DNA from: a virus
Taxonomy: Duplodnaviria; Caudoviricetes
Virus record (IMG/VR): IMGVR_UViG_3300021378_000015
Coordinates: 1-64,000 of that record
Strand: one strand, 5' to 3'
DNA length: 64,000 nucleotides
The notes under the pieces are model-generated. The model saw only the letters and a list, made by a program, of their open reading frames with translations, was not told where the DNA came from and did no database searches. This document shows positions 4,560 through 50,546 of the stretch, one piece after another. The position numbers and the translations under genes were made by a program. Position 1 is the first letter of the stretch. Each line of letters opens with the position of its first letter.

Positions 4560-4799
4560 ATGGAACTTATTAGAAAAATCATTATCGGGCAAAACCCGAA
4601 AGATGCCATGGCTTACTATGTAGGGCAGAAGGCAGGAGAGTCAGTAATCGATTCTATCGTATTAGACGACAGATGTTTTGTCAAACACGGAATTCGTCGC
4701 TATCTTGTATACATCTATAATAAAGAACAGGGTATAATGCTTTGGAAGACAGTAGATGATATGCCAGTATTAATTGAACATGATTGTGACTTCGAATGA
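4560..4799 (+). CDS. Conserved hypothetical phage protein
   Basis: IRKIIIG..PKDAMAYYVGQ; in operon. Confidence 0.75.
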   Translation: MELIRKIIIGQNPKDAMAYYVGQKAGESVIDSIVLDDRCFVKHGIRRYLVYIYNKEQGIMLWKTVDDMPVLIEHDCDFE

Positions 4800-5359
4800 T
4801 TGTAATTGATAATTTTATAAAAGACCAAGATCTTTTGATGGATCTTGAACTTAACAAAGAATACCTATTTAGTGATAACGGATCTTACTACTGGTGGAAC
4901 GGATGGTGGAACTCACCAGACGATACATTAAAGAAAAGACTAATCTGTTATATATGGAGAGACTATCCTCCGTATGGATCTGTTTCTTTAGATGGCTTTG
5001 AGTACTGGACCGGACAATACGGTGAAGGTAAAGGAGTGTCTAACCTAAATATGCACTTAGACAAAGACGAAGACTTATGGAAAACAACGGGTGAAATAAA
5101 AGCCCCTATCATAGGTACAGTGTTCTATCCTGTTGAAATGGACATAGAAGGTGGTTATCTTGAGATATTCTCTAATGGTCCTGACAATGAGCCTGAAAGA
5201 ATTCAAGCAAAGTATAATAGGTTAATCATATTTGACGCAGGTAACATACATCACAGAGTTACAACTGTGACCAAAGGAACAAGATCTGCTATTGCAATAA
5301 ATCTTTGGGATGAAGCACCTACAACAAAATTAAAGTTTGAGGCTCCAGAACCAATATGA
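4796..5359 (+). CDS. 2OG-Fe(II) oxygenase (prolyl-hydroxylase-like)
   Basis: HLD...GGYL...NRLIIFD..HRV...RSAI: HxD..H triad plus 2OG-binding Arg. Confidence 0.85.
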   Translation: MIVIDNFIKDQDLLMDLELNKEYLFSDNGSYYWWNGWWNSPDDTLKKRLICYIWRDYPPYGSVSLDGFEYWTGQYGEGKGVSNLNMHLDKDEDLWKTTGEIKAPIIGTVFYPVEMDIEGGYLEIFSNGPDNEPERIQAKYNRLIIFDAGNIHHRVTTVTKGTRSAIAINLWDEAPTTKLKFEAPEPI

Positions 5360-8443: not shown

Positions 8444-10876
8444 ATGGATAACCAATATAAATCAGGACAGTCTTCCTTTCCAGACGCTTTAGCAGGCACA
8501 GAGGAAAAGATGTCTATGCCTTATGGCTTGCAATATGCAAAGGCCATGTTCGCTCAATGGGTTGGGAGTGACTATCAAAATTCATTATACGGCAGAAGAA
8601 ATACAGAAATGGAACGCTGTAGAGACTATGCTCAGGGAACTCAAGACACGTCTATATACAGACAGATTCTAAATTCTCTTGACCCTAATAACGGGGATGG
8701 AACATTATTAACTCTTGATTACACACCTGTTCCAATCGTTCCAAAGTTTGTAAAGATTGTTGTAAACAAAATATTATCTAAAGAGCCTTATCCACAAATA
8801 CAGGCAATAGACCCTCTTTCAAGATCAGAAAAAGATAAAAAGAAAGCCGCTACTATTTTACGTATTGAAAACCGTAACATAATAGAAGAGGCTAAAGCAC
8901 TTGGTTTAAATGTTTCAGTAGATCCAAATGAACTACCGGAAACACCAGAGGAAACAGAAATATTTCTTGACACAAATATCAAAACTGACGCTGAGATATC
9001 TGCACAGATTGCTACTGAACTGACTCTCAAGTGGAACAACTTTAATGAATCTATATATCGCCGTTGTGTTGAAGACTTGGCCACACTTGGTATGGCTGTG
9101 GCTAAACGTACTAATGATCCTAACTATGGCATCAAAGAAGAATATGTTGATCCAAAACGGTTTGTCCATAACTATACTGATGATCCGAACTTTGGGGACC
9201 TGACATATGCTGGACACTTTAAGTTCATAACCATAATGGAACTCAAGCGTATTGCCGGTGATCAGTTTACTGAAGCGCAATACGAACAGATTGCAAAGAC
9301 CGTAATGAACAAGTACGGAAACAATCCGACTCAATTTAGTTCTGCTGGATATACTTATGATCGTCCAGGAACACGTTACCGTCAGGGATACGATGAGTAC
9401 AAGGTTGAAGTTATGGACTTTGAGTTCATGTCTGTTGACAACATCATATACGAGAAGAAAGAATCTGCTTATGGGAACATAGGCTTTTATTACAAAGGGA
9501 CAGAGTACAATGCTCCTCAACAATCGGTATACGATCGAGAAGCAATGTACATGAGTAACGCTACTGTATACGGAGGTACTTACATTGTGGGTACAGAGTT
9601 AATGTTTGACTACGGTCCTAAGAAAAACATACCTAAGAACGTACACGATATATCCCGTGCTACATTATCATACAGCGCCATTGCAACAAACATTAGAGGA
9701 ATGATTCCTAAATCAATGGTTTCCTCTGTTATTGGGTTTGCTGATATGTTACAAATCACACACCTCAAGATTCAACAATCTATTGCTAAGGCAAAGCCTG
9801 ATGGTTTGATCATAGATATCGAGGGCTTAGAGAATGTACAACTTGGTAGAGGTGGAGAACTTCAACCATTAGAGATTCAAGACATATACGAACAAACTGG
9901 TATCTTCTATTACAGAAGTAAAAATCCAGAAGGTGGATTCCAAAACCCACCGGTTCGCGAAATAGGAAATGCTATCAGAAACATCACAGAATTGGTTGCT
10001 ATATACAATCACTATCTAAGGATGATTAGAGACGCCACAGGGATCAATGAGGTCATGGATGGAACTTCACCCAAGGGAGATGCTCTTGTGGGCGTTAGAC
10101 AGCAGCAAATAGCCGCAGGTAACAATGCTATATATGATATTACTAACGCTGCTATGGTTCTTTACAAAAAGGTTTGTGAAGACGTTGTGAAATGTTTACA
10201 GATTATACCACCAAAAAGTATTCTTTACAAGGCATATACTAATGCTATTGGAGAAACAAACATGGCGGTGATAACCTCGTTTGATAATCTATCTATGTAC
10301 AACTTTGGAGTAATGGTTGTTACAGAAATGGGTGAGATGGACAAGGCCTATTTAGAACAAAATATTCAAATAGCGCTTGCTCAAAAAGAAATTGATCTTG
10401 AGGATGCTATTGCGATCAGACAAATAAAGGATGTTGAGCAAGCCGAAAGATTATTGGTTGTTCGTCGCAAGAAGCGTATGAAGCAGCAGCAACAAATAGC
10501 GGCTCAAAATATGCAGATGCAAGCACAGGCAAATGCAGAGTCATCACAAGTTGCAGGTCAGATTGAAATGCAGAAAAAACAAATGGAGGCTCAGATAGAA
10601 GCACAGCGCATTCAATTAGAGACCCAAGCAAAAGCACAACTGTTGGAACTTGAATATCAATACAAGATTCAATTAGAAAACATAAAAGGAGAGTACGGTA
10701 TTGTTGAACAACAAATTGAGAGTGGGGTAAAGCAACAAGAGCAGGCAGTATCAGAGAACCGTAAAGATGCTCGAATAGATAAGCAGGCTGCTGCTCAAAG
10801 TAAATTAATCGCTCAACGTCAAGGAGAGAGACCCCCAATGGAAGAAGAAGTAATAACAAACTTAACCCTATCGTAA
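8444..10876 (+). CDS. Portal protein
   Basis: 810 aa after TerL; PVPIVPKFV, IRDATGINE..DG, Gln-rich coiled-coil C-terminus. Confidence 0.88.
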   Translation: MDNQYKSGQSSFPDALAGTEEKMSMPYGLQYAKAMFAQWVGSDYQNSLYGRRNTEMERCRDYAQGTQDTSIYRQILNSLDPNNGDGTLLTLDYTPVPIVPKFVKIVVNKILSKEPYPQIQAIDPLSRSEKDKKKAATILRIENRNIIEEAKALGLNVSVDPNELPETPEETEIFLDTNIKTDAEISAQIATELTLKWNNFNESIYRRCVEDLATLGMAVAKRTNDPNYGIKEEYVDPKRFVHNYTDDPNFGDLTYAGHFKFITIMELKRIAGDQFTEAQYEQIAKTVMNKYGNNPTQFSSAGYTYDRPGTRYRQGYDEYKVEVMDFEFMSVDNIIYEKKESAYGNIGFYYKGTEYNAPQQSVYDREAMYMSNATVYGGTYIVGTELMFDYGPKKNIPKNVHDISRATLSYSAIATNIRGMIPKSMVSSVIGFADMLQITHLKIQQSIAKAKPDGLIIDIEGLENVQLGRGGELQPLEIQDIYEQTGIFYYRSKNPEGGFQNPPVREIGNAIRNITELVAIYNHYLRMIRDATGINEVMDGTSPKGDALVGVRQQQIAAGNNAIYDITNAAMVLYKKVCEDVVKCLQIIPPKSILYKAYTNAIGETNMAVITSFDNLSMYNFGVMVVTEMGEMDKAYLEQNIQIALAQKEIDLEDAIAIRQIKDVEQAERLLVVRRKKRMKQQQQIAAQNMQMQAQANAESSQVAGQIEMQKKQMEAQIEAQRIQLETQAKAQLLELEYQYKIQLENIKGEYGIVEQQIESGVKQQEQAVSENRKDARIDKQAAAQSKLIAQRQGERPPMEEEVITNLTLS

Positions 10877-10877
10877 T

Positions 10878-11276
10878 ATGGCTTGCGGATGCTCAAATAG
10901 TCCATGTTCATGTCCTAACCCGACAAACTTAAATATGAACAACGCTGCACAGTTAAATATCTGTACGCGTCGTGGAGACACGTTTATCTTAAACTCTGTT
11001 GTAGCATCCTCGAATGGTGTGAAGTTAGATCTTACTCTATACTCTTTTAAAATGGAAGTTAGAGAATATGACAATGGACCACTGGTTATAACCAATACCG
11101 ATATAACTACCACTGGAGATATCAATGGAAATCTCGTGGTGACTATAACAGCGGCTAATATGCAGGTACCAGCAGGTACATATGTATATGGTTTTCAATC
11201 AACACTTACATCTGCTGGCACTGTTGAGACTTGGTTCTATGGAACCTTTGAAGTAGTGCAGGACATCGTAACATAA
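10878..11276 (+). CDS. Putative fibre adaptor (BppU/DUF2479-like beta sandwich) with Cys-rich N-terminus
   Basis: RRGDTF..DLT.Y..MEVR..GTYVY..GTFEV; MACGCSNSPCSCP. Confidence 0.55.
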   Translation: MACGCSNSPCSCPNPTNLNMNNAAQLNICTRRGDTFILNSVVASSNGVKLDLTLYSFKMEVREYDNGPLVITNTDITTTGDINGNLVVTITAANMQVPAGTYVYGFQSTLTSAGTVETWFYGTFEVVQDIVT

Positions 11277-11294
11277 ATTTCAGAACAACCCCTA

Positions 11295-14200
11295 ATGGCT
11301 GAAGTAGAAATCATAGTAATAGAAGCAGGCGGACTTGTCTTCGACATAACACTTCCACCTCAAACAACAGCGGTAATAACTCCTGGTAGTGTTACTCAAC
11401 TTGTTGGTGCCAAAGGAGACAAGGGACAAAAGGGCCAGAAGGGTGAAATAGGTCTTAAAGGTTCTAAAGGGGAAATAGGAGTTAAGGGTGATACTGGATC
11501 AAAAGGAAATACTGGAGATAAGGGTACTACTGGTGATAAAGGCATACAGGGCGACAAAGGTGAAGTCGGTGCAAAAGGAGAAGAAGGTGCTAAAGGTGAG
11601 ATCGGTGTTAAAGGAGATACCGGTGCAAAGGGAGACACTGGAGACAAAGGTACTTCTGGAGACAAAGGCCAGAAAGGTATAGATGGATCCAAAGGACAAG
11701 AAGGCGCTAAAGGAAATATCGGTGATAAGGGTACTACTGGAGATAAAGGTATTACTGGTGATAAGGGCGAGGCTGGTGACAAAGGCCAAAAGGGTATTGA
11801 TGGTACCAAAGGAGATACTGGTGATAAAGGTACTGCTGGAGATAAAGGTCAGAAAGGAATTGACGGAACCAAAGGAGATACGGGAGACAAAGGTACCGCT
11901 GGAGAAAAAGGAGAGAAAGGAATTGATGGCACCAAAGGAGATACTGGCGACAAGGGAATCACTGGTGATAAAGGTGAGGCCGGAGCCAAAGGTGAAAAAG
12001 GAATTGACGGAACCAAAGGAGATACTGGTGATAAAGGTACCGCTGGAGAAAAAGGAGAAAAAGGAATTGATGGTACCAAAGGAGATACTGGCGACAAAGG
12101 TCAGAAGGGTATTGATGGTACTAAAGGAGATACCGGAGACAAAGGTACTGCCGGTGACAAAGGTGAGAAAGGTCAGAAAGGTCAGGATGGCGTCAAGGGT
12201 CAAGAGGGAGATTCATGGACATCAGCGGTAGGACCACCATCTACTCCCGGAGTTAACATAGGTGATCAGTATTTAGATACGGCCACTGGCGATGTTTATG
12301 AGTGGGATGGTGCCCAATGGGTCCCCACCGGAAATATCCAGGGTCCTGCCGGAGGCAAAGGGCAAAAAGGAATTGACGGTACCAAAGGTGATACTGGCGA
12401 TAAGGGAACTGCTGGTGATAAAGGCGAAGCCGGTTCTAAAGGTGAGAAAGGTATTGACGGTACGAAGGGCGCCACTGGCGATAAAGGTACTACCGGAGAT
12501 AAAGGAGAGAAAGGTCAGAAAGGAATTGACGGGTTAAAAGGAGAAGAAGGAGATAGTTGGACTTCCGCTGTTGGCCCACCATCTACTCCCGGAGTTAACA
12601 TAGGTGACCAATACTTAGATACGGCCACTGGCGATGTCTACGAATGGGATGGTGCTCAATGGGTACCTACTGGAAATATTCAAGGGCCTGCTGGAGGTAA
12701 GGGACAAAAAGGTATTGATGGCACTAAAGGAGACACAGGAGATAAGGGAACTGCTGGTGATAAAGGAACTGCTGGCGATAAAGGTCAAAAAGGGATTGAC
12801 GGCACCAAGGGGGATACTGGAGATAAAGGAACCACTGGTGACAAGGGTGAGAAAGGTCAGAAAGGAATTGACGGTCTTAAAGGACAAGAGGGAGATAGTT
12901 GGACTTCCGCTGTTGGACCGCCGAGTACTCCAGGTACTAACGTAGGTGATCAATATCTTGACACTGCAACCGGTGATGTCTACGAATGGGACGGTGCTCA
13001 ATGGGTACCAACTGGTAATATACAAGGACCACAAGGAGGCAAAGGGCAAAAAGGTCAAGACGGCACCAAAGGAACTACGGGGGACAAAGGTATTTCCGGG
13101 GACAAAGGTGAGAAGGGTATCGATGGTACGAAGGGCCAGAAGGGTGAAGACGGAACTAAGGGGACTACGGGAGACAAAGGAGAGAAAGGCCAGAAAGGTA
13201 TAGATGGCGTCAAGGGTCAAGAAGGTGACTCATGGACATCTGCTGTTGGACCACCGAGTACTCCAGGTGTTAACATAGGCGACCAATACCTTGATACAGC
13301 GACTGGTGATGTTTATGAGTGGGATGGTGCACAGTGGGTACCTACTGGGAACATCCAAGGTCCTGCTGGTGGTAAAGGCCAAAAAGGTGAAGACGGCGAC
13401 AAAGGTGCGGCTGGAGACAAGGGAACTGCTGGTGATAAAGGTGAGAAGGGCATCGATGGTACCAAAGGACAGAAGGGTATTGACGGTACTAAAGGTACAA
13501 CTGGCGACAAAGGAGATAAAGGACAAAAGGGACAAGACGGTGTTAAAGGGCAAGAAGGTGATTCTTGGACCTCAGCAGTAGGCCCCCCATCTACTCCCGG
13601 CACGAATATAGGTGATCAATATCTTGACACTAATACAGGAGACGTTTACGAGTGGGATGGTGCTCAGTGGGTACCTACCGGTAATATACAGGGGCCTGCT
13701 GGTGGCAAAGGTGAAAAAGGACAAAAAGGACAAGACGGTGCATCTGTAAAAGGCCAAAAAGGTGAAGCGGGTGACAAAGGTCAAAAAGGGATTGACGGTA
13801 CTAAAGGTGATAAAGGTATCGATGGCACCAAAGGAACCACTGGAGATAAAGGTGAAAAAGGACAAAAGGGACAAGACGGTGTTAAAGGCCAAGAAGGAGA
13901 CTCTTGGACTTCCGCTGTTGGACCTCCATCTACTCCAGGTACTAATGTTGGTGATCAATACCTTGATACTAATACAGGTGATGTCTACGAATGGGACGGA
14001 GCGCAATGGGTGCCGACTGGAAACATTCAAGGACCACAAGGCGGTAAAGGAGAGAAAGGTCAGAAGGGCCAAGATGGTGCTTCAGTCAAAGGGCAAAAAG
14101 GAGAAGAAGGAGATAAGGGATCCAAAGGAGAGAAGGGTATTGACGGTACTAAAGGTACCACTGGTGATAAGGGACAAACTGGTGAGAAGGGTGTCGCTGG

Positions 14201-17200
14201 AGATAAAGGCGCTGCTGGAGACAAAGGTCAAAAAGGTGAAGATGGTACCAAAGGCCAAAAAGGTGAAGAAGGAGATAAAGGACAAAAAGGCCAGAAAGGT
14301 GAAATAGGTCTTAAAGGACAAGAAGGAGACTCTTGGACATCTGCTGTTGGACCTCCGTCTACTCCGGGTACCAATGTAGGTGATCAGTACTTAGATACTA
14401 ATACAGGCGATGTCTACGAATGGGACGGCGCTCAATGGGTACCAACTGGGAACATCCAAGGTCCACAAGGAGGTAAGGGCCAGAAGGGTCAAGACGGAGC
14501 CTCGGTCAAAGGTCAAAAAGGAGAAGAAGGAGATAAGGGTCAGAAAGGTCAAGACGGTGCTTCCGTTAAAGGACAGAAGGGCGAAGCCGGTGCTTCGGTT
14601 AAAGGTCAGAAGGGTGAAGCAGGTGCCAGTGTTAAGGGGCAGAAAGGCGAAGAAGGAGACAAGGGCCAAAAAGGAATTGACGGCACCAAGGGAACTACTG
14701 GTGATAAAGGAGAGAAAGGTGAGAAAGGGCAAAAAGGAGAGATAGGAGTTAAGGGCCAAGAGGGAGACTCTTGGACTTCCGCTGTTGGACCACCTTCAAG
14801 TCCCGGAACGAATGTAGGCGACCAATACTTAGATACTAATACAGGCGATGTCTACGAATGGGATGGTGCACAGTGGGTTCCAACCGGTAATATCCAAGGG
14901 CCACAAGGTGGTAAAGGACAGAAGGGTCAAGATGGAGCATCTGTCAAGGGCCAGAAAGGTGAAGCGGGTGACAAAGGTGCACAAGGAGCGTCTGTCAAAG
15001 GACAGAAGGGCGAGGCTGGAGACAAGGGTGCACAAGGAGCATCTGTCAAGGGTCAGAAAGGTGAAGCAGGAGATAAAGGAACAGCGGGAGATAAAGGACA
15101 GAAAGGTGAGGCTGGTACTAAAGGTCAGAAAGGTGAGGCTGGAGATAAGGGTCAGAAAGGACAAAAAGGAGAAATAGGAGTCAAGGGCCAAGAAGGAGAC
15201 TCTTGGACATCGGCTGTTGGGCCGCCATCTACCTCTGGCACTAATGTTGGCGACCAATATCTTGACACTGCCACAGGTGATGTCTACGAATGGGACGGAG
15301 CGCAATGGGTTCCTACTGGCAATATCCAGGGACCACAAGGTGGTAAAGGAGAGAAAGGCCAGAAGGGTATCGATGGAGCCTCTGTTAAAGGACAAAAAGG
15401 TGAGGCTGGAGACAAGGGTCAAACAGGCGCTTCAGTTAAAGGACAAAAAGGTGAGGCTGGAGACAAGGGTGCAACTGGTGCCAGTGTCAAAGGTCAGAAA
15501 GGAGAAGCCGGAGACAAAGGTGCAACTGGTACAGCGGTCAAGGGTCAAAAGGGTGAAGACGGAACCAAAGGTCAGAAAGGACAAGACGGTGCTTCGGTAA
15601 AAGGACAAAAAGGCGAAGCAGGAGATAAAGGTGCTCAAGGGGCTTCGGTCAAAGGACAGAAGGGCGAGGCTGGAGACAAGGGTGCACAGGGTGCAAGTGT
15701 CAAAGGCCAAAAGGGTGAGGCTGGAACTAAGGGTCAGAAAGGACTTGAAGGTGATTCATGGACTTCTGCTGTTGGACCACCGAGTGGTTCAGGTACTAAC
15801 GTAGGTGATCAATATTTAGATACAGCGACTGGTGACGTCTATGAATGGGATGGCGCGCAATGGGTACCAACTGGAAATATCCAGGGGCCTCAAGGCGGTA
15901 AGGGTCAGAAGGGTCAAGATGGCGCATCCGTTAAAGGCCAAAAGGGTGAAGCAGGTGATAAGGGTCAGAAAGGACAAGACGGTGCATCTGTTAAAGGACA
16001 GAAAGGTGAGGCCGGTGCATCTGTTAAAGGACAGAAGGGCGAAGCCGGAGCAAGCGTTAAAGGACAGAAAGGTGAGGCTGGTACTAAAGGTGCTACCGGT
16101 ACTGCCACTAAGGGCCAGAAGGGTGAGGCTGGTACTAAGGGTGCTACTGGTACCGCTACTAAAGGTCAGAAGGGCGAGGCTGGTACTAAAGGTGCTACCG
16201 GTACTGCTACCAAAGGACAAAAAGGAGAAGTGGGAGATAAAGGCGCTGCTGGAGCATCTGTCAAGGGGCAGAAGGGTGAGGCAGGTACCAAAGGCCAAAA
16301 GGGAGAAGAAGGAGATAACTGGACCTCAGCAGTTGGACCACCGAGTGGTGCAGGTACCAATGTAGGTGATCAGTACTTAGATACTACCACAGGTGACGTG
16401 TACGAATGGGATGGTGCACAGTGGGTTCCAACTGGAAATATCCAGGGGCCACAAGGTGGTAAAGGACAGAAGGGTGCTGCTGGTGCTGCTACTAAAGGTC
16501 AGAAGGGCGAGGCAGGAACAAAAGGTGCTGCTGGAGATAAAGGTGCAACGGGCACAAGTGTTAAAGGTCAGAAGGGTGCTGATGGTGCTTCAGTTAAGGG
16601 TCAGAAAGGTGAAGCCGGTACTAAAGGTGCTACCGGTACTGCTACTAAAGGTCAGAAGGGTGAGGCTGGTACTAAAGGTGCTACTGGTACTGCGACTAAG
16701 GGACAAAAAGGTGAGGCTGGTACTAAGGGTGCAACCGGTACTGCGACTAAGGGCCAGAAGGGTGAAGCCGGTACTAAGGGTGCTACTGGTACTGCGACTA
16801 AGGGACAAAAAGGTGAGGCTGGAGCCAGTGTCAAAGGACAAAAAGGTGAGGCTGGTACAAAGGGACAGAAAGGTGAAGAAGGAGATAACTGGACCTCAGC
16901 AGTTGGACCACCGAGTGGTGCAGGTACTAATGTTGGAGATCAGTACTTAGATACTACCACAGGTGATGTCTATGAATGGGACGGCGCTCAATGGGTACCA
17001 ACTGGAAATATCCAAGGTCCTTCTGGTGCTTCGGTCAAGGGACAGAAGGGTGCTGCTGGTGCTTCGGTCAAGGGACAAAAAGGTGAGCAAGGTGTTTCAG
17101 TCAAAGGACAAAAAGGTGAGCAAGGTGTTTCAGTCAAAGGCCAGAAAGGTGAGGCTGGTGCTTCAGTCAAGGGACAAAAAGGTGAGGCTGGTGCTTCGGT

Positions 17201-17783
17201 CAAGGGACAGAAAGGTGAGGCTGGTACTTCAGTCAAAGGCCAGAAGGGTCAGACAGGATCAGCGGGTAATGATGGATCAGACGGTACTAAAGGACAGAAG
17301 GGTCAGACAGGTTCTTCTGGAACACCGGGTACTGGATTTACTCCTATGATTGGCGGAATTGACTCCAGTCAAACATTTACTACGGCTCAAACGCGTTGTA
17401 ATATAAACAGAACTTTAGGTGGTGGTCAAGCGGGTACAAACGTAGATATTAGTTCTAATCAAATTACTATATCAGCAACGGGTACATATCTGTGTACTTA
17501 CTCTGTGACACTAAAGTCTAATTACAACAACCGTTCATGTGTAGGTTTCTACTTAAAGCAAGTGACAGGGGGTAGCACAAACCCAATAGGTTCAGCGGCA
17601 ATTCAATACTTCCGTCATAATACTTATGGAGACTTCAGTACCCTTAGCGCATGTTTTATTTTCCAATCAACATCTGGTGATGCATATGAGTTGACTACAT
17701 CCAATGCTCTTGATGGTATTTGGAATCACTCAACGCAATCCGCAAGTGTATATAGAGGTATAATGGTTCAAAGATTAACATAA
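11295..17783 (+). CDS. Giant collagen-like fibre protein (Gly-X-Lys rich, 12 repeated knob domains, C-terminal C1q/BclA-like head)
   Basis: Long Gly-X-Y runs (GDK, GQK, GEK, GTK); 12 x D(S/N)WTSAVGPP..GDQYLDT.TGDVYEWDGAQWVPTGNIQGP; ITISATGTYLCTYSV in C-terminal domain. Confidence 0.95.
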   Translation: MAEVEIIVIEAGGLVFDITLPPQTTAVITPGSVTQLVGAKGDKGQKGQKGEIGLKGSKGEIGVKGDTGSKGNTGDKGTTGDKGIQGDKGEVGAKGEEGAKGEIGVKGDTGAKGDTGDKGTSGDKGQKGIDGSKGQEGAKGNIGDKGTTGDKGITGDKGEAGDKGQKGIDGTKGDTGDKGTAGDKGQKGIDGTKGDTGDKGTAGEKGEKGIDGTKGDTGDKGITGDKGEAGAKGEKGIDGTKGDTGDKGTAGEKGEKGIDGTKGDTGDKGQKGIDGTKGDTGDKGTAGDKGEKGQKGQDGVKGQEGDSWTSAVGPPSTPGVNIGDQYLDTATGDVYEWDGAQWVPTGNIQGPAGGKGQKGIDGTKGDTGDKGTAGDKGEAGSKGEKGIDGTKGATGDKGTTGDKGEKGQKGIDGLKGEEGDSWTSAVGPPSTPGVNIGDQYLDTATGDVYEWDGAQWVPTGNIQGPAGGKGQKGIDGTKGDTGDKGTAGDKGTAGDKGQKGIDGTKGDTGDKGTTGDKGEKGQKGIDGLKGQEGDSWTSAVGPPSTPGTNVGDQYLDTATGDVYEWDGAQWVPTGNIQGPQGGKGQKGQDGTKGTTGDKGISGDKGEKGIDGTKGQKGEDGTKGTTGDKGEKGQKGIDGVKGQEGDSWTSAVGPPSTPGVNIGDQYLDTATGDVYEWDGAQWVPTGNIQGPAGGKGQKGEDGDKGAAGDKGTAGDKGEKGIDGTKGQKGIDGTKGTTGDKGDKGQKGQDGVKGQEGDSWTSAVGPPSTPGTNIGDQYLDTNTGDVYEWDGAQWVPTGNIQGPAGGKGEKGQKGQDGASVKGQKGEAGDKGQKGIDGTKGDKGIDGTKGTTGDKGEKGQKGQDGVKGQEGDSWTSAVGPPSTPGTNVGDQYLDTNTGDVYEWDGAQWVPTGNIQGPQGGKGEKGQKGQDGASVKGQKGEEGDKGSKGEKGIDGTKGTTGDKGQTGEKGVAGDKGAAGDKGQKGEDGTKGQKGEEGDKGQKGQKGEIGLKGQEGDSWTSAVGPPSTPGTNVGDQYLDTNTGDVYEWDGAQWVPTGNIQGPQGGKGQKGQDGASVKGQKGEEGDKGQKGQDGASVKGQKGEAGASVKGQKGEAGASVKGQKGEEGDKGQKGIDGTKGTTGDKGEKGEKGQKGEIGVKGQEGDSWTSAVGPPSSPGTNVGDQYLDTNTGDVYEWDGAQWVPTGNIQGPQGGKGQKGQDGASVKGQKGEAGDKGAQGASVKGQKGEAGDKGAQGASVKGQKGEAGDKGTAGDKGQKGEAGTKGQKGEAGDKGQKGQKGEIGVKGQEGDSWTSAVGPPSTSGTNVGDQYLDTATGDVYEWDGAQWVPTGNIQGPQGGKGEKGQKGIDGASVKGQKGEAGDKGQTGASVKGQKGEAGDKGATGASVKGQKGEAGDKGATGTAVKGQKGEDGTKGQKGQDGASVKGQKGEAGDKGAQGASVKGQKGEAGDKGAQGASVKGQKGEAGTKGQKGLEGDSWTSAVGPPSGSGTNVGDQYLDTATGDVYEWDGAQWVPTGNIQGPQGGKGQKGQDGASVKGQKGEAGDKGQKGQDGASVKGQKGEAGASVKGQKGEAGASVKGQKGEAGTKGATGTATKGQKGEAGTKGATGTATKGQKGEAGTKGATGTATKGQKGEVGDKGAAGASVKGQKGEAGTKGQKGEEGDNWTSAVGPPSGAGTNVGDQYLDTTTGDVYEWDGAQWVPTGNIQGPQGGKGQKGAAGAATKGQKGEAGTKGAAGDKGATGTSVKGQKGADGASVKGQKGEAGTKGATGTATKGQKGEAGTKGATGTATKGQKGEAGTKGATGTATKGQKGEAGTKGATGTATKGQKGEAGASVKGQKGEAGTKGQKGEEGDNWTSAVGPPSGAGTNVGDQYLDTTTGDVYEWDGAQWVPTGNIQGPSGASVKGQKGAAGASVKGQKGEQGVSVKGQKGEQGVSVKGQKGEAGASVKGQKGEAGASVKGQKGEAGTSVKGQKGQTGSAGNDGSDGTKGQKGQTGSSGTPGTGFTPMIGGIDSSQTFTTAQTRCNINRTLGGGQAGTNVDISSNQITISATGTYLCTYSVTLKSNYNNRSCVGFYLKQVTGGSTNPIGSAAIQYFRHNTYGDFSTLSACFIFQSTSGDAYELTTSNALDGIWNHSTQSASVYRGIMVQRLT

Positions 17784-17784
17784 T

Positions 17785-17982
17785 ATGGCGGTTCAAGAAA
17801 GTTTCTACATACAAAATGCAGACAATACAGCGAATTTAAAAACCGATGGATCATGGGAAAGGACTGATGATAACTTCGATGAGTTTCGTTCGTTCTCAAC
17901 AAAGGCAGAAGCGCTTGCATACATAGATAATATACCCGACGGGGCATATGTGATATACAGTAGAATTGTAAAGACCAGTTAG
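17785..17982 (+). CDS. Hypothetical protein (possible fibre chaperone)
   Basis: 65 aa directly after the collagen gene. Confidence 0.7.
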   Translation: MAVQESFYIQNADNTANLKTDGSWERTDDNFDEFRSFSTKAEALAYIDNIPDGAYVIYSRIVKTS

Positions 17983-18029
17983 ATAATGTATCTTTAGTGA
18001 TGCAATAGTTAATTTAATTGTATCAACAA

Positions 18030-20282
18030 ATGGTCATTGTATTCCACGCAGGATATTATGCAAGTGCCTGGAACCCCTATTATAACTCAGAAGGAATAGG
18101 AGGAACCGAGCAATGTATAATGGGGTTATCAAGGTCACTGGCTATACAAGGGCATAGTGTTTTTGTAGTAGGCCAGGTCAAGCCTGTTTCTGATAAATAC
18201 CCCAACAGCGGATCCCTTAATTATGTAGATCTAAAAAACATAAGTGAGATCCCAGAGATAGATATACTTATCGGTGTATCATATATCCACTACTTAAAAT
18301 ACTATAATCTAAAGCCACAGACTAAGAAGATATTCTGGTTACACAATGAACATCCTCACTATTGGTACAAGGGCCAGCGTATGTCTGACGCAGATATAAA
18401 AGATGCTTATCTAAACACGGACACAATTGTTTGTCTTACCAATTGGCATAAAGAATACTTTATAAAGAATGAAGCCCCGGATCATTTATCAGTAGATAAA
18501 GTAGAGGTGATTGGCAATGGCCTTGATACATCGCTGTTTGAGCCTGTCATCACTAAGAAAAAAGATTCTTACATATACACATCTCATCCAGAACGAGGAC
18601 TTGATGCAGTAATCAGTGATATTGAAAAAGGATACCTTGATGGGACTCTCGATATATGTACACCTGCTTATGGTTTGGAGTACTACAATAAAAACTTTTC
18701 CGAGCGTGTATCTAAATTAGAAGGTGTTACTTTTCATGGTAGTCTCTCTAATAAAGAGTTGTATAAACTAATGTCTAAGTGTGAGAGTTGGTATTACCCT
18801 ACTACATACAATGAAACTTATTGTTTAACAGCGATTGAAATGTTGGGACACCATGTAAGACCTTTGGTCAATCCTATTGCTGGGCTTAAAGAAACTTTAA
18901 ATAAGTTTAGCAAACATATAACAGATTGGTCTAAGGTTGATGAATACGTTAACTCTCGTGACTGGAAGTTAGTAGCAAAAGAATGGGAAATTTTATTTAA
19001 TAAAAAGGAAAGCCTTATGATTCAAAAAGTCTATGTAATATCTATGGACACCTCTGACAAAAAGTTAAAAGAGTATACAGGTAGACTAAAGGAAGCGGGT
19101 ATTGATTGTGACGTAGTGATAGTGCCAGGTGTAGACGCAAGATCTTTTAAAGATTATAAATGGTCTCCACATGATTCATGGGCTATGAACAGTGATAATA
19201 AATGGTGGAACCAACCGGTAACAGTCGGTGAGATGGGCTGTGGTTTAGCACATTTAAATACCTGGAAGAAAATTGTAGAGGATCAAACAGAGATTGCTTT
19301 AATATGTGAGGAAGATTTCTTCTTTAAAGGCAAGATAGATTATTCAATTATTCCTGATCCAAGTACATGGGACATGCTTTACTTAGGGCGCAGAGCAATG
19401 GCTCCAGATAGAGATGATTACGGGGATATTGTAGTCCCTGGATACTCTTATAACTTGCATGCGTATATGGTTACCCAGGCAGGTGCATTATCTTTTACTC
19501 AGCATAACTTCCAGGAGTATATAACAGCGGCAGATGAATTTATTCCTGCTACTTATTGTGTCCATCCAAGAGGTGATTGGGACTGGGTAACAAGAGATAC
19601 TCGTGCACTTGCGCTAAAAGAAGATATTGCTTTTCAGTCATCTAATGACAACACAAGTAGAACCCAGTCTACTGTTCACGAAGAGATTTTTAAATCTGGC
19701 AAATGGCCTGAATGGGTTGATAAATGGATTCATCCTGCTGCTAAGACAAAGGCTTGGGACATGATATTTGAAGAGCCTATACAAGATGTTATATCATATC
19801 CTTTGTTTACAGAAGAGTTTTGCAAATTGCTTATAGATGAGGCAGAGCAGAAGGCTTTATGGCAAACTAAAAGACATGAATTTTATCCAACAGTGGATAC
19901 ATTAATATCTTCATTTGGGTACGACGAAATATACAAGCGTGTTCTAAAAGAGTTTGTTTTTCCGGCGGCGATAACCAGGTGGCACCTTCACGGTAAAGCA
20001 TGGATAAATATGGATAGTGAAAACTTCATGATTAAATACACTACAGATACACAGGGTCACTTAGATCTGCATCATGACAACGCTGTTATTAGTTCGGTGC
20101 TAACTTTAAACAAAGACTATACAGGGGGAGGTACATATTTCTATAATCAAAAACAAACACACGTAGGAGATGTGGGGCATATTGCTGTTCATCCTGGGCA
20201 AGTAACACATAGGCATGGTGGAAGACCAGTACACAGTGGTAAGAGATATATACTTGTCTCGTTTTGTAATAAACAAAACTAA
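18030..20282 (+). CDS. Trifunctional GT4-like glycosyltransferase / GT25 (COLGALT-like) / PLOD-like lysyl hydroxylase
   Basis: GIGGTEQ..WLHN..IGNG..YTSHPERGL..ETYCLTAIEM (GT-B); GVDA..GEMGCGLAH..EEDF..WDMLYLGR..AYMVT..DEFIP (GT25); NFMIKY..HHD..DYTGGGT.F..HPGQVTHRHGG..RYILVSF (PLOD). Confidence 0.88.
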   Translation: MVIVFHAGYYASAWNPYYNSEGIGGTEQCIMGLSRSLAIQGHSVFVVGQVKPVSDKYPNSGSLNYVDLKNISEIPEIDILIGVSYIHYLKYYNLKPQTKKIFWLHNEHPHYWYKGQRMSDADIKDAYLNTDTIVCLTNWHKEYFIKNEAPDHLSVDKVEVIGNGLDTSLFEPVITKKKDSYIYTSHPERGLDAVISDIEKGYLDGTLDICTPAYGLEYYNKNFSERVSKLEGVTFHGSLSNKELYKLMSKCESWYYPTTYNETYCLTAIEMLGHHVRPLVNPIAGLKETLNKFSKHITDWSKVDEYVNSRDWKLVAKEWEILFNKKESLMIQKVYVISMDTSDKKLKEYTGRLKEAGIDCDVVIVPGVDARSFKDYKWSPHDSWAMNSDNKWWNQPVTVGEMGCGLAHLNTWKKIVEDQTEIALICEEDFFFKGKIDYSIIPDPSTWDMLYLGRRAMAPDRDDYGDIVVPGYSYNLHAYMVTQAGALSFTQHNFQEYITAADEFIPATYCVHPRGDWDWVTRDTRALALKEDIAFQSSNDNTSRTQSTVHEEIFKSGKWPEWVDKWIHPAAKTKAWDMIFEEPIQDVISYPLFTEEFCKLLIDEAEQKALWQTKRHEFYPTVDTLISSFGYDEIYKRVLKEFVFPAAITRWHLHGKAWINMDSENFMIKYTTDTQGHLDLHHDNAVISSVLTLNKDYTGGGTYFYNQKQTHVGDVGHIAVHPGQVTHRHGGRPVHSGKRYILVSFCNKQN

Positions 20283-20869
20283 TGGTATATCATAATCATA
20301 AATTAGTTTTCATAGCAGTACCAAAGTGTATGACAACTTCGATCCACAGAGAATTGAGGACTCAAGAAGAGATTGATAACAGACATGGTCATAAGCATTA
20401 CACATTCTTTGACCTAACAGAGGAATACAGCAATAAAATGCTTTCTGAATATACATCCTTTACTATTGTACGTAACCCCTATGATCGAATATGGTCCGCG
20501 TGGAAACATAATTTTTTAAGACAGCAGACTATAGAGGAGCCAAACATGATTGAAAGGTTTCAAGATTATATTAAAACAGATTTGCTACTACAATTTAAGA
20601 AAGATGATTATGACCGTATACATTTTGTACCACAGGTAGACTTCTTGTATCTAATGCGGAGGCACAAACTTGTAGATCATATTTTTAAATACGAGACATT
20701 TGCTAATGATTGGTTACTGTTCAGGGAGAATCATAACAAGAAACTACCAGAGAAATTTGTCCGCGTAAACTATACAGCGAAAACAGATCAAGATCCATAC
20801 GACAATGAATCAAGAGAGATTATAAAAAAAATATATGAAGACGATTTCAGACTCTTTAATTATTTATAA
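20282..20869 (+). CDS. Sulfotransferase family 2 (carbohydrate sulfotransferase-like)
   Basis: FIAVPKCMTTS 5'-PSB, VRNPYDRIWSAW 3'-PB, HFVPQ, YEDDFRLFNY; TAATG-coupled. Confidence 0.87.
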   Translation: MVYHNHKLVFIAVPKCMTTSIHRELRTQEEIDNRHGHKHYTFFDLTEEYSNKMLSEYTSFTIVRNPYDRIWSAWKHNFLRQQTIEEPNMIERFQDYIKTDLLLQFKKDDYDRIHFVPQVDFLYLMRRHKLVDHIFKYETFANDWLLFRENHNKKLPEKFVRVNYTAKTDQDPYDNESREIIKKIYEDDFRLFNYL

Positions 20870-20871
20870 AA

Positions 20872-21015
20872 ATGAGACACTTCTTAGATCTAACTACAGA
20901 TCAATTAAAATTATTACATGAGATGATTTCTTCTCGTCGTCTTGAAAGTAATGAGGTTTTAGAACTTATTGAGAAAATTGAGATACACCTCGCTATACCC
21001 GGCATAAAACGATAA
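20872..21015 (+). CDS. Small hypothetical protein (47 aa, not in ORF track)
   Basis: MRHFLDLTTDQLKLLHEM..; fills the intergenic gap exactly. Confidence 0.55.
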   Translation: MRHFLDLTTDQLKLLHEMISSRRLESNEVLELIEKIEIHLAIPGIKR

Positions 21016-21031
21016 TACTTATATTTGCTTT

Positions 21032-21325
21032 ATGGCAGAAAGTAAGTACGGCAACATACTAAAACGATATAGACTCAAGGGTTTTAATCAACCTAAGCGG
21101 ACTCCAGATCATCCTAAAAAGTCACATATTGTAGCGGCTAAAGAAGGCGACAAGGTTAAGATTATTCGCTTTGGAGAGCAAGGAGCATCAACAGCGGGTA
21201 AGCCAAAGGCAGGTGAATCTGACAAGATGAAAAAGAAACGTGCTTCCTTTAAAGCCCGTCACGCCAAGAACATTAAGAAGGGTAAATTCTCTGCTGCGTA
21301 CTGGGCCAATAAAGTAAAGTGGTAA
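21032..21325 (+). CDS. Small basic protein (DUF6321-like)
   Basis: KSHIVAAK.GDKVKIIRFGEQG..RASFKARH..SAAYWA; TATATTTG 4 nt before ATG. Confidence 0.75.
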   Translation: MAESKYGNILKRYRLKGFNQPKRTPDHPKKSHIVAAKEGDKVKIIRFGEQGASTAGKPKAGESDKMKKKRASFKARHAKNIKKGKFSAAYWANKVKW

Positions 21326-21507
21326 TGGCTAAGAAGTACAAATCAAAAGTAAATCAATCAGGAAACTATACTAAGCCAGGGATGCGTAAGCGTTTGTTTA
21401 AAAGAATTATGGCTGGTACTAAAGGTGGTAAAGCAGGGCAGTGGTCTGCTCGTAAAGCACAGATGTTAGCGAAAGCCTATAAAGCCGCAGGGGGCGGATA
21501 CAAATAA
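21325..21507 (+). CDS. Small basic protein (DUF5872-like N part)
   Basis: YTKPGMRKRL..GGKAGQWSARKAQMLAKAYKAAGGGY. Confidence 0.75.
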   Translation: MAKKYKSKVNQSGNYTKPGMRKRLFKRIMAGTKGGKAGQWSARKAQMLAKAYKAAGGGYK

Positions 21508-21752
21508 TGCCAGGTTTAAAAAAAGCACAAGAGTCCCTAAGAAAATGGACTAAACAAAAGTGGCGTACTAAATCAGGTAAGGCCTCATCTAAGACAGGAG
21601 AGCGTTACCTACCTACAGCGGCAATTGCTGCGCTTTCAGATGAAGAATATAATGCTACTTCAAGAGCGAAAAGGGAGGGTACAAAAGAAGGAAAGCAATA
21701 TGTTCCTCAACCCAAAGCCGTTAAAAAGAAGACTAAGGTTTACCGAGCATAG
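21507..21752 (+). CDS. Small basic protein (DUF5872-like C part)
   Basis: SLRKWTKQKWRTK..GERYLP..KQYVPQP. Confidence 0.75.
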   Translation: MPGLKKAQESLRKWTKQKWRTKSGKASSKTGERYLPTAAIAALSDEEYNATSRAKREGTKEGKQYVPQPKAVKKKTKVYRA

Positions 21753-21891
21753 ACACACAACGATCTATAATCTTAGCGTATAACTCAGACTTTTCTTTTG
21801 TTCTCATCATGTTGCTTGCAGCGTAGTCAGCAATATTTGTCAACACACATTTACTTTCAACACTGATGTTTGTTTCGTAATTTGTTTTCAT
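21733..21891 (-). CDS. Small hypothetical protein (52 aa, antisense to the late operon)
   Basis: MKTNYETNISVESKCV..; TAAGTTTA element at 21911-21918 on -. Confidence 0.45.
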   Translation of the reverse strand: MKTNYETNISVESKCVLTNIADYAASNMMRTKEKSELYAKIIDRCVSMLGKP

Positions 21892-21957
21892 GATATGAAT
21901 TTCAGTTCCTTAAACTTACATAACATTACTTAAATTTGCAATACTAATCTTATTGAC

Positions 21958-22200
21958 ATGGATGATCGACTAATGAAAATGTACAAAAGTGGGGGACTAC
22001 TCAAGGCTCTACTTAAAGACCCAAGCCAAAGAGAGATGGCTCGCAAGATGCTTGACTCTAACAGCGACTCAGTTGTTGATGGTAACGCTGGAAGAGGTGG
22101 TACTAAGAAGTATAAAGCAGGTGGTAAAGCAGAGAAAGCAACAATGACAATGCTTGGTGCTAAAGCAGGATTTAATCCAGGAGCAAAGGATACTTACTAA
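21958..22200 (+). CDS. Hypothetical protein with two KxYKxGG motifs
   Basis: Own promoter TAAATTTG 21931-21938 and downstream terminator. Confidence 0.75.
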   Translation: MDDRLMKMYKSGGLLKALLKDPSQREMARKMLDSNSDSVVDGNAGRGGTKKYKAGGKAEKATMTMLGAKAGFNPGAKDTY

Positions 22201-22220
22201 ACACCGCTTACACTATATAT

Positions 22221-22256
22221 AAAAAGGGGACTCTTAACAGGGTCCCCTTTTCTTTT
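22221..22256. terminator. Bidirectional intrinsic terminator
   Basis: aaaaaggggac..gtcccctttt. Confidence 0.8.
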
Positions 22257-22348
22257 GGCTACTCCTAACCACAGTAAGTGCCATTGCACTCACTTCCACA
22301 AACATACAGTTTATGTATTAAATTTGCTGTATAAATAAATTAAATAGA

Positions 22349-23497
22349 ATGGAAAAAGTAGAAAGCCAAATGGAGCAGGCTATCCAGGATGCAGGATTCA
22401 CTATTACTGATACCTTCCCCGGAGAGCCACAGACTACAGAAGAGGCACCTGTGCAAGATAATGTGCAAGCGCCTACACCAGAGGTAAGTGCAGAGCCTGC
22501 ACCTACAAATGAAAGTGAGCCGCAACAAGTAGTTGAATCGGCTCAACCAGAAGTACAACAAGAAGTACAACAAGATGTACAACAGGTTGTAGAACAAGAA
22601 ACGGCTCCTGTACAAGAGGAGCAAAGTTCTTTAAATAATGAGAGTGAAGGTTTTGAAAGTTTCTTTCAAGCGTTAACAGGCGAAATGCAGGCAACGCAAG
22701 AAGAACCAACAGAGCCTCAATCTATATCTGAGTCAAGTCTCGACCCACGGATTGCAGTCATTGCTGATTTTGTGGAGAAGACAGGTCGCTCACCTGAAGA
22801 CTGGTTCCGTTACCAGGCATTAGATCCGTCCGAAATGGATGATCGTACTGTTATGCGGGTCCATATGGCAAGTGAGTATCCATCTCTTGGTAATGATGAA
22901 ATTGATTTATTAATCTCATCTAAATACAAGACTGATGAAAATGTTTTCTCTGAAGAAGAAGTTAGACTTTCAAACCTTCAGTTGAAGATTGACGCAGAGA
23001 AGGCCAGACAGAATGTAGGATCATTACGTGAAGCGTATACCCTACCTGCTGAAGGGTCTTCAAATGTTGTTGAAACTGAAAGCCCATTTGATGTGGAATG
23101 GTCTCGGTCGAATGCACAATCATTAACAGAGTTAGGCGAAATTGCCTTTGAACTCCCCGGTGGTCGTGAATTCAATTATGGCGTGAGTACTGATTACCGC
23201 AATGAGTTGGCCAAGGATAACGGCAACATGACTGAGTTCTTTGATAAGTACGTGGATAACACGGGCAACTGGGACCATGATCTTTGGAATATGCACCGTA
23301 CGGTTACTGATAACCTACCGAATATCCTACAGAGCATTTACCAGCAAGGTATGAGTGACGGACAACGCAATGTCGTTGAGAAGGCAGCGAATATTGACGC
23401 CAGTAATCCTACTGCTAATCCAGAGCAAAGTCAAAGAGATTCTGTTGCCCAACAGGTACTTGATGCTTTGGGACGGCAACAAACATTTTTAAAATAA
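22349..23497 (+). CDS. Capsid scaffolding protein
   Basis: Acidic, disordered N-terminus, directly before the capsid gene; promoter TAAATTTG 22319-22326. Confidence 0.7.
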   Translation: MEKVESQMEQAIQDAGFTITDTFPGEPQTTEEAPVQDNVQAPTPEVSAEPAPTNESEPQQVVESAQPEVQQEVQQDVQQVVEQETAPVQEEQSSLNNESEGFESFFQALTGEMQATQEEPTEPQSISESSLDPRIAVIADFVEKTGRSPEDWFRYQALDPSEMDDRTVMRVHMASEYPSLGNDEIDLLISSKYKTDENVFSEEEVRLSNLQLKIDAEKARQNVGSLREAYTLPAEGSSNVVETESPFDVEWSRSNAQSLTELGEIAFELPGGREFNYGVSTDYRNELAKDNGNMTEFFDKYVDNTGNWDHDLWNMHRTVTDNLPNILQSIYQQGMSDGQRNVVEKAANIDASNPTANPEQSQRDSVAQQVLDALGRQQTFLK

Positions 23498-50104: not shown

Positions 50105-50546
50105 GAAGCGTCTCTGATTTGTGATAGTACTCATCGGGTGCAAAATATATGTAAGGCAACAGCGTTTCACCTTCGGGTGTGACCGCCCCTCGTCTCTTTC
50201 TTTTATACCAATCGGGGTGTCCTTCTAACATATCCAATTGTTTAAGTTCATCCTCCGATACTAAGTATAGTTCTACATCTACGTTGAATCCAACACCAGG
50301 CTTCTCTACGAGAAAGGGTAGTCCTGATCCATGTACTACCATAGGGTATTGTCTCTCTGTCTTTGCATTCGAAACGTATACAGCATTGCTTAGTAGTATG
50401 TTGTTACCAAAGCCACGCTTCAGTGTACCGTATACAGCGATTAGAATATCACGCAGTTCTTCGTTATCACTTCCTTGTACCACCACTCTACGTCCTCCTT
50501 CTGCTTCGCGCTGAAGATTGGGTTTATTCCTTTGTTTAGTTGCCAT
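50091..50546 (-). CDS. Gamma-glutamylcyclotransferase (AIG2-like); start uncertain
   Basis: IAVYGTLKRG..N, ELY.V, LDMLEGHP.WY.R. Confidence 0.85.
   Translation of the reverse strand: MATKQRNKPNLQREAEGGRRVVVQGSDNEELRDILIAVYGTLKRGFGNNILLSNAVYVSNAKTERQYPMVVHGSGLPFLVEKPGVGFNVDVELYLVSEDELKQLDMLEGHPDWYKRKRRGAVTPEGETLLPYIYFAPDEYYHKSETLHECY

Follow-up and report, generated by a model that had tools for sequence, protein, structure and literature searches.

Hydroxylysine-linked glycosylation of collagen is regarded, to our knowledge, as an animal trait, with mimivirus as the sole viral exception. The mimivirus protein L230 is said to have been described, in a 2011 study by Luther, as having two activities, those of a collagen lysyl hydroxylase and of a hydroxylysyl glucosyltransferase. 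Guo 2018 (PMC5802723) gives the same two activities for L230. In humans, LH3 (PLOD3) and GLT25D1 (COLGALT1) form a complex (8zgc; PMC11897130; PMC12987934, PMC12003778). Here, we analyse a stretch of viral DNA of 64,000 nucleotides (positions 1 to 64,000 of the IMG/VR record IMGVR_UViG_3300021378_000015; Duplodnaviria, Caudoviricetes), hereafter the window, and within it one plus-strand open reading frame (ORF). It encodes a protein of 750 amino acids (aa) that joins a glycosyltransferase (GT) of the GT4 type, a GT25 domain and an Fe(II)/2-oxoglutarate (2OG) dioxygenase domain of the collagen lysyl hydroxylase (LH) type, and it lies downstream of a gene for a collagen-like fibre.

We favour, with moderate confidence, the reading that this enzyme hydroxylates and O-glycosylates lysines of the collagen-like fibre encoded upstream. 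Decoration of self-encoded collagen, as in animals and giant viruses, is thus probable for phages as well. The adjacent fibre gene, which the initial annotation of the enzyme did not take into account, is the strongest clue to function.

Like L230, the phage enzyme is virus-encoded and carries its LH domain at the C-terminus of a polypeptide with more than one glycosyltransferase domain, and mimivirus, like the phage, encodes its own collagen-like proteins. L230, however, belongs to a giant virus of a eukaryotic host. The phage gene also differs in adjoining the gene of its presumed substrate. Moreover, L230-type proteins, for which the metagenomic protein P0219 (GT25 + GT_PLOD + LH) served as a stand-in, contain PLOD-type GT-A domains, whereas the phage enzyme has a GT4 domain of GT-B fold. 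The human pair offers the same combination of an LH dioxygenase and a GT25 module, with metal ligands and catalytic base conserved, but distributes it over two proteins bound together, where the phage has one chain. Unlike that pair, the phage enzyme lacks non-catalytic GT domains (NGT in COLGALT1, AC in LH3). Its second sugar would come from the GT-B domain, unlike in LH3, where a GT-A domain is involved, and it would act in the bacterial cytoplasm, while the human enzymes act in the endoplasmic reticulum.

Domain architecture and catalytic residues

The ORF is a single open frame from TTG 18018 or ATG 18030 through the stop codon at 20280-20282. All invariance counts and the structural model rest on alignment A1, a set of 32 homologous sequences. 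Since most of its rows start at the methionine of ATG 18030, this codon was taken as the start. The AlphaFold2 model has a mean pLDDT of 89.4, with low-confidence or disordered stretches at aa 325-328 and 546-549 only, which places the domain borders at about nt 19002-19013 and 19665-19676. The initial annotation had read the gene as a fusion of a GT-B domain, a GT25 domain and a dioxygenase, with borders at 19010/19017 and 19670/19680. Pfam, phmmer, the model and Foldseek all bear out this fusion, and the borders agree with the model linkers within a few codons.

The first domain (18030..19001, plus strand, aa 1-324) is of the GT4 type and expected to be retaining. Pfam Glyco_transf_4 matched aa 27-172 just above its cut-off (E=3.7e-7, 30.7 bits against 28.5), and Foldseek related the N-terminal third of the protein to the retaining GT-B enzymes MshA, glycogen synthases, BshA, PimA and the alpha-1,2-glucosyltransferase tll1591 (TMt 0.66-0.68). 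A GGTE motif (G25, E27) and an EX7E motif (E262-x7-E270) are invariant in all 32 sequences. Pfam, model and Foldseek thus agree on the GT-B fold, which had been set in contrast to the GT-A domains of PLOD.

The second domain (19014..19664, plus strand, aa 329-545) is a GT25 domain of GT-A fold resembling the catalytic C-terminal domain of COLGALT1. Its Pfam match clears the cut-off of 24 bits (Glyco_transf_25, aa 336-440, E=2.1e-12, 47.8 bits). In phmmer searches of the PDB, aa 389-517 matched human COLGALT1 (9evj) at an E-value of about 1e-12, while the domain reached just 0.08-0.37 with the bacterial GT25 8xlz and 0.2 with mimivirus R655. Foldseek superposed it on COLGALT1 9evk over 229 columns with an rmsd of 3.4 Å.

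The third domain (19677..20282, plus strand, aa 550-750 and the stop codon) is the dioxygenase. In phmmer, aa 551-747 matched the LH domain of mimivirus L230 (6ax6, E=4e-22) and human LH3 (6fxk, E=2e-20), the only PDB matches of this domain at E≤1. By Foldseek, it superposed on L230 (6ax6_B) with a TMt of 0.87 and an rmsd of 2.3 Å over 208 columns at 31% identity, and on LH3 with an E-value of 1e-20. In a protein atlas, the top scores of this part were 0.85-0.87, where 0.9 counts as a match, and all belonged to viral 2OG clusters. The earlier comparison of the middle domain with COLGALT and of the C-terminal domain with PLOD was based on motifs; every motif quoted there is present in the translation and aligns with its LH3 or COLGALT1 counterpart, and the phmmer and Foldseek results show the likeness to be specific.

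Catalytic residues were placed through pairwise alignments onto residues of GLT25D1 and L230 known from structures and mutagenesis. In the GT25 domain, all 32 sequences share E427, D429 and D502; E427, D429, D502, E503 and C404 correspond to E435, D437, D522, E523 and C412 of GLT25D1, and the ribose contact D436 is replaced by E428, a D-to-E change. According to PMC12987934, D437 of GLT25D1 binds Mn2+ and D522 is the catalytic base; the glutamate described there as anchoring the amino group of hydroxylysine (Hyl) is also kept in the phage domain. In the LH domain, H681, D683, H729, R739 and Y670, again invariant throughout A1, align with H825, D827, H877, R887 and Y814 of L230, which form the Fe(II) triad and bind 2-oxoglutarate; these Fe and 2OG ligands are identical in the two proteins. 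Judged from its catalytic residues, the enzyme appears to resemble an LH joined to a COLGALT-type transferase.

Linkage to collagen-like fibre genes and proposed chemistry

The proposed substrate is a collagen-like fibre of 2162 aa (11295..17783, plus strand; Pfam Collagen E=1.7e-143, in 20 stretches). The local gene order is portal, a 132-aa ORF, the fibre ORF, a 65-aa ORF, the enzyme and a Sulfotransfer_2 gene. The enzyme gene sits in a virion structural module with portal and capsid genes on either side. The fibre contains 332 G-X-Y triplets in runs of at least six, and 463 in runs of at least three. Its collagen stretches are broken up every ~110-190 residues by 12 copies of a globular module of ~45 aa (GD.Y.W[DN]G..W), for which Pfam shows no more than a diffuse DUF6087 signal. 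The C-terminal head of ~150 aa (window 17319-17780) was modelled as a TNF/C1q-like jelly roll (pLDDT 85.5), with the TNF family, APRIL (TMt 0.79) and BxpB/ExsFA of the Bacillus exosporium as its best Foldseek matches. A collagen stalk with a trimeric TNF/C1q-like head also characterizes the exosporium protein BclA. In BclA, Thr residues are glycosylated by unrelated enzymes, and we know of no lysyl hydroxylase involved in that process.

The association of enzyme and fibre genes was assessed across IMG/VR, where a profile scan gave 392 pattern matches, 343 of them encoding a relative; the family thus occupies at least 343 loci there. The best 80 of these 343 were kept as 79 loci, and a collagen-like ORF was required to have at least 20 G-X-Y triplets and to lie upstream, on the same strand, within 10 kb. 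Such an ORF was present in 65 of the 79 loci. In nine of the other 14, the upstream flank is shorter than 1.8 kb. The remaining five belong to one myovirus-like clade; in four of their records a collagen ORF lies ~11.5 kb upstream, while the fifth record is only a fragment, of 14.5 kb. When the enzymes were clustered at 70% identity, 14 of 17 clusters had a fibre gene within 10 kb. By comparison, only 1 of 36 control loci encoding LH-like proteins in cellular genomes had a collagen-like ORF within that distance, and this one is a three-domain gene on a contig of a Flavobacteriaceae metagenome-assembled genome (MAG). Most of the other cellular loci encode free-standing domains of ~215-260 aa in Thiothrix, Thiolinea and Leucothrix. 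The proteins at L104-L122 (~210-270 aa) are 38-42% identical to the LH domain and include those of the isolates T. fructosivorans and T. eikelboomii. In the two nearest terminase relatives without the enzyme, the portal is followed directly by structural proteins; neither has a long collagen ORF, and one has a 15-triplet tail fibre elsewhere. The linkage of the enzyme with collagen-like fibre genes is strong.

This linkage bears on the reading that the enzyme modifies a host or phage glycan of the cell surface, lipopolysaccharide (LPS) or capsule, with an unrelated role for the dioxygenase. Database entries carry the name 'GR25 family glycosyltransferase involved in LPS biosynthesis', the Pfam descriptions show the GT25 and GT4 families to be rich in enzymes of LPS, lipooligosaccharide and cell-wall synthesis, and an NCBIfam search of the enzyme gave nothing specific, with a single sub-threshold GT match. 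Yet the gene lies between portal and capsid genes, collagen genes are tightly linked to 14 of the 17 enzyme clusters, the GT25 domain is far closer to COLGALT1 than to bacterial GT25, and fusion to an LH-type domain would have no rationale in LPS synthesis. We consider a role in glycan synthesis very improbable.

The sequence of the fibre offers a further indication of its role as substrate. Among its 272 lysines, 270 precede a glycine and 231 stand in G-x-K-G, while none occurs in G-K-x-G or otherwise at X; in strict runs, the fraction of Y positions occupied by Lys is 0.55, where a review names Thr as the most frequent Y residue in bacterial collagens (PMC8968730). X-Lys-Gly, or Xaa-Hyl-Gly, is the sequence acted on by lysyl hydroxylases and GLT25D1, as stated in PMC12987934. 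Since the lysine context of the fibre matches this GLT25D1 rule, we counted it in favour of the fibre as substrate.

The fibre may instead be modified by a different chemistry, in which the dioxygenase acts on Pro, Asn, Asp or Arg, or the GTs act directly on Thr or Ser of G-X-T/S in the manner of BclA. This has some appeal, as BclA glycosylation is on record (PMC8968730), Thr makes up 0.24-0.48 of the Y positions in several linked fibres, and the Hyl-binding Trp of COLGALT1 is absent from the enzyme. The fibres of distant clades also contain much Pro at X and Thr, Ile or Gln at Y, with about 1-13% Lys at Y. Lysyl hydroxylases are, however, the only solved relatives of the dioxygenase by sequence, the nearest fibres confine Lys to X-K-G, and the GT25 domain keeps both the catalytic base and the Hyl-anchoring Glu of GLT25D1. 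We regard this alternative as unlikely and retain lysine hydroxylation and glycosylation as the preferred reading.

Several observations nonetheless weigh against the preferred reading. Within the fibre, 73 KGE and 15 KGD sequences give 88 instances of K-G-E/D, and Lys at Y followed by G-E/D is also what electrostatic stabilization of a triple helix free of hydroxyproline would select. In distant clades with this enzyme, the linked fibres have a low proportion of Lys at Y, from 0.05-0.13 (L057, L064 and L072) down to about 0.01 (L074). The Thiothrix, Thiolinea and Leucothrix chromosomal loci have no collagen-like gene within 10 kb of the LH-like gene, indicating that the fold is not everywhere tied to collagen. 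The only Pfam signal of the dioxygenase domain, to the 2OG-oxygenase model OGFOD2-like (aa 572-649, E=9.9e-5), is under the cut-off (22.8 bits against 31). The acceptor site of the GT25 domain also departs from its human counterpart. Unlike GLT25D1, with its 'YW' motif (Y494, W495), the phage enzyme has Y-N, within 'YSYNxHAY', where H477 is invariant, and K470 of GLT25D1 is R in the phage enzyme and N in most homologues; the comparison of the acceptor cleft covers K470 and the 'YW' motif, the lid loop Y561-E580 of GLT25D1 being outside the alignment. The W495A mutant of GLT25D1 is inactive (PMC12987934). With W495 lost and K470 changed, Hyl recognition, if any, differs from that of COLGALT1.

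The dimer interface departs from that of L230 as well. Unlike L230, the phage enzyme shows no aromatic dimer pocket in the alignment, which has H, A and I in place of Y798, Y801 and Y831, although the alignment is weak at Y798-Y801. L873 of L230, the Leu lock in its tail-to-tail dimer, is V725 here and V or I across A1. From these alignments, the acceptor site and the quaternary structure of the enzyme may differ from those of LH and COLGALT1. A two-copy complex prediction of aa 550-750, with a score of 0.18 against a mark of 0.42, speaks neither for nor against a dimer.

In the scheme that we infer, from the fibre as substrate and the step order to the sugars and the location of the fibre on the virion, the protein would be a phage 'collagen-maturation' enzyme acting on the fibre protein in the infected cell. 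Its Fe(II)/2OG domain would hydroxylate the Y-position lysines of G-X-K-G in unfolded or nascent chains. The GT25 domain, an inverting GT-A enzyme using Mn2+ and a UDP-sugar, would then place a first hexose on the hydroxyl so formed. A second, alpha-linked sugar might subsequently be attached by the GT4 domain, which belongs to a retaining GT-B family; this would be the most speculative step, akin in logic, not in fold, to the reaction at the LH3 glucosyltransferase site. Sulfation of the glycan may follow in the closest relatives, through the sulfotransferase that the next gene encodes. Once modified, the chains would form trimeric collagen fibres on the virion, each with a TNF/C1q-like head.

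Related fusions and their distribution

Homologues were searched among 90%-identity clusters of a set of 5.8 billion proteins. The full architecture is widespread: of the 114 clusters retrieved, 91 align over 97% or more of the query. Their contigs reach 40-63 kb, and their names are generic only. A further 15 of the 114 clusters are of the size of two-domain GT25-LH proteins. An exhaustive search of 50% representatives gave 129 proteins at E≤1e-30. Pfam scans of the matches revealed other arrangements of related modules: GT25 + GT_PLOD + LH in P0219, P0225 and P0183, GT_PLOD + GT25 + LH in P0197, and GT_PLOD + LH in P0202 and P0194. P0219 matched full-length LH3 at E=1e-110 and COLGALT1 at 3.5e-48. 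The occurrence of several fusion orders of GT25 and LH suggests that nature has repeatedly joined COLGALT-like and PLOD-like modules into a single chain. The fusion is consequently less unusual than first supposed, with most clusters sharing the architecture and other GT25/LH fusions in existence, although the GT4-containing form is, as far as its sequence tells, a distinct variant of this phage group.

On the contig of a Flavobacteriaceae MAG (L093, 6188-9287), a tblastn match to the whole enzyme (aa 1-750) spans three adjacent ORFs of 459, 205 and 369 aa, which appear to be an unfused form of the enzyme.

Two cultured phages encode GT25-GT_PLOD-LH-like proteins: Synechococcus phage S-8S55 (621 aa) and Roseobacter phage CRP-6 (gp58, 589 aa). 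They are annotated merely as '2OG-Fe(II) oxygenase superfamily domain containing protein' or 'hypothetical protein'. Both genes come right after those of collagen-like tail fibres with Lys at Y (fractions of 0.44 and 0.26; loci L084, 2940-10713, and L085, 4952-8564, respectively), and in S-8S55 two small 2OG oxygenases are encoded between the fibre gene and the enzyme gene. Both phages are tailed, and their enzymes share GT25 and LH-like parts with the one studied here. S-8S55, a T4-like cyanomyovirus, and CRP-6, a roseophage, differ from it in having a PLOD-type GT-A domain and no N-terminal GT4, and they show the linkage independently, in other phage lineages. Among the cultured phages of INPHARED, none encodes the complete three-domain enzyme.

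In full-text searches of main articles, we found none that connects lysyl hydroxylase, PLOD, GT25 and collagen-like fibres to tailed phages, and no study of the GT25-GT_PLOD-LH proteins of S-8S55 or CRP-6. A supplementary BLAST analysis of PMC12003778 mentions bacterial matches to the GT25 domain, which could bear on novelty.

A large phage family pairs collagen fibres of up to about 2200 residues with LH/COLGALT-like enzymes. More broadly, and only tentatively, we consider it possible that, for their giant virion fibres, tailed phages of marine bacteria possess a complete and self-contained pathway for collagen lysines in the style of animals (Lys to Hyl, to hexosyl-Hyl, to a disaccharide, with sulfate in some strains), carried out by one polypeptide. 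Hydroxylysine-linked glycosylation would then have its first example in the bacterial world, and phages would constitute a large, overlooked reservoir of LH and COLGALT enzymes (GT4-GT25-LH, GT25-LH and GT25-GT_PLOD-LH), natural single-chain counterparts of LH3-COLGALT1. Were the chemistry confirmed, the hydroxylysine glycosylation pathway would reach bacterial viruses, a natural fusion would mirror the human LH3-COLGALT1 complex, and some of the many '2OG-Fe(II) oxygenase' genes of marine phages would be accounted for. The single-chain enzymes would also suit the bacterial cytoplasm for modification of recombinant collagen, a use for which mimiviral L230 and R699 have already been proposed (PMC9546862).

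Phage genome, host and second gene set

The window derives from a marine tailed phage of roughly 60 kb. Its large terminase (6306-8408) and portal (8444-10876) matched PHROGs at E=1e-187 and 5e-178, respectively, and a primase-helicase is encoded on the minus strand (45907-47697, PHROGs match). The closest terminases are those of a 60.8-kb freshwater podovirus (48%), Flavobacterium elemoviruses (41%), Cellulophaga phages and Bacteroides crAss-like phages. A giant-virus setting was rejected on these grounds. The initial annotation had implied such a setting and argued from early-gene starts, neither of which fits a tailed-phage terminase and portal. A small 2OG-Fe(II) oxygenase is encoded upstream of the terminase (4796-5359; 2OG-FeII_Oxy_3, E=1.5e-7).

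The motif TAnnTTTG, which we take to be the Bacteroidota -7 promoter consensus, occurs within 80 nt upstream of 8 of 28 plus-strand gene starts, against 1.2 expected, and six of these eight lie 27-30 nt before the ATG (motifs at 8416, 21020, 21931, 22319, 25857, 32452, 3245 and 27323, plus strand). Three-domain homologues are also present on contigs of two Flavobacteriaceae MAGs. Given the terminase relatives, the TAnnTTTG excess and these MAG homologues, the host is likely a member of the Bacteroidota, probably of the Flavobacteriia. Megablast of window 20282-42000 against the INPHARED phages gave no match.

An in-frame ATG at 19017 (19017..19019, plus strand), encoding Met330 at the border of the GT4 and GT25 domains, had been proposed as an internal start from which a GT25-LH form might be made separately. 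The codon is present in the linker, preceded by '...aaaaggaaagcctt', and the AT-rich/GCCTT stretch described ahead of it is there. Its supposed likeness to other starts did not hold: GCCTT precedes 0 of the 28 other gene starts listed, and neither a TAnnTTTG motif nor a sigma-70-like site was found in 18900-19017. The sigma-70 scan, which covered 10800-22400, gave 13 sites against 18.2 expected and hence no promoter signal.

It seems improbable to us that a 421-aa GT25-LH protein is made from this second start beside the full-length enzyme. The ATG falls exactly in the disordered GT4/GT25 linker of the model, and free-standing GT25-LH proteins of ~440 aa (P0177, P0181, P0184 and P0186) begin at the position of aa 330-331, indicating that other genomes encode the short form by a gene of its own. 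Just 3 of 32 homologues, however, retain the Met of 19017 (13 of 32 have a Met within about five residues), the ORF contains 15 in-frame ATGs including this codon, and the codon lacks the TAnnTTTG found before the eight real starts. A purine-rich 'aaaaggaaag' lies about 5-14 nt ahead of it, but as the regions upstream of the other starts have no obvious Shine-Dalgarno motif (judged by eye, not counted), this run carries little weight. A separate product from ATG 19017 is thus unsupported.

Around the enzyme gene, the 65-aa ORF (17785..17982, plus strand) has no Pfam match, and tblastn places relatives of it in 22 of 80 related loci. The gene on the other side (20282..20869, plus strand) encodes a Sulfotransfer_2-family sulfotransferase (Pfam E=6.6e-19, 69.5 bits against a cut-off of 22). 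By tblastn it occurs in just 6 of the 80 loci, a variable accessory gene, and its ATG shares 1 nt with the stop codon of the enzyme. The first convincing plus-strand terminator-like hairpin past 10800, with a 13-bp stem and a T-rich tail, is located at 22222-22251, at the end of a block of small basic-protein genes downstream of the cassette; the scan also lists a weak 5-bp site at 18174. The stop/start overlap and the lack of a convincing terminator until 22222 make for an operon-like layout.

The whole record measures 81,340 bp and contains a second enzyme gene, 47% identical to the first, with architecture and catalytic residues conserved between the two copies. It belongs to a second gene set of terminase, portal, a collagen fibre of 1789 aa, a DUF6445 protein and the enzyme, so that the record has two terminases, two portals, two collagen fibres and two enzymes. 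The second fibre ends in a Peptidase_S74 chaperone domain, not in a TNF/C1q-like head. From about 61.1 kb to the end of the window at 64 kb and through the rest of the record (64001-81340, locus L003), the gene order of window 0.5-21.6 kb appears again at about 72% identity, and the small 2OG oxygenase upstream of the terminase has its counterpart at L003 326-874. Window 22-41.9 kb is 92-94% identical to a complete relative of 60,040 bp (G006), whereas 42-52.8 kb is 90-93% identical to a 51.8-kb relative (G007) and just about 72% to G006. The record is best read, from these identities, as a hybrid of two related phages of ~60 kb joined near 42 kb, probably an assembly chimera, which makes the second enzyme an orthologue and not a paralogue. 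The duplicated gene order and the switch of closest relative near 42 kb led us to reject a paralogue within one genome. Among contigs of four DNA runs over window 50000-64000, exact matches from three other runs extend across 60.4-61.9 kb.

In the phage of the second gene set (B-type), the gene for the DUF6445 protein (~187 aa, L003 13326-13889) stands directly upstream of that for the enzyme, an arrangement shared by 28 of 80 related loci. The cassette of the window itself has no such gene, and the domain co-occurs with 2OG-FeII_Oxy in P0114. In the distant clades (L057-L076, IMG/VR), the genes of the three-domain enzymes (35-38% identity) come after two or three fibre genes of other types, arranged in tandem, which encode G-P-I/Q collagens (Pro at X 0.5-0.9, little Lys) and G-S/T-S proteins.

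Finally, a short AT-rich patch at window positions 52780-52960 and 61071-61105 contains repeated 'tttacccttaNtttg'-like elements, and a 35-nt piece of it recurs at six places in G006 with 94-97% identity. The summed contig depth at this patch (~52.8-52.95 kb) is, depending on the run, about 4- to 30-fold that of its neighbours, and many contigs break there. The patch is possibly a cluster of conserved promoters.

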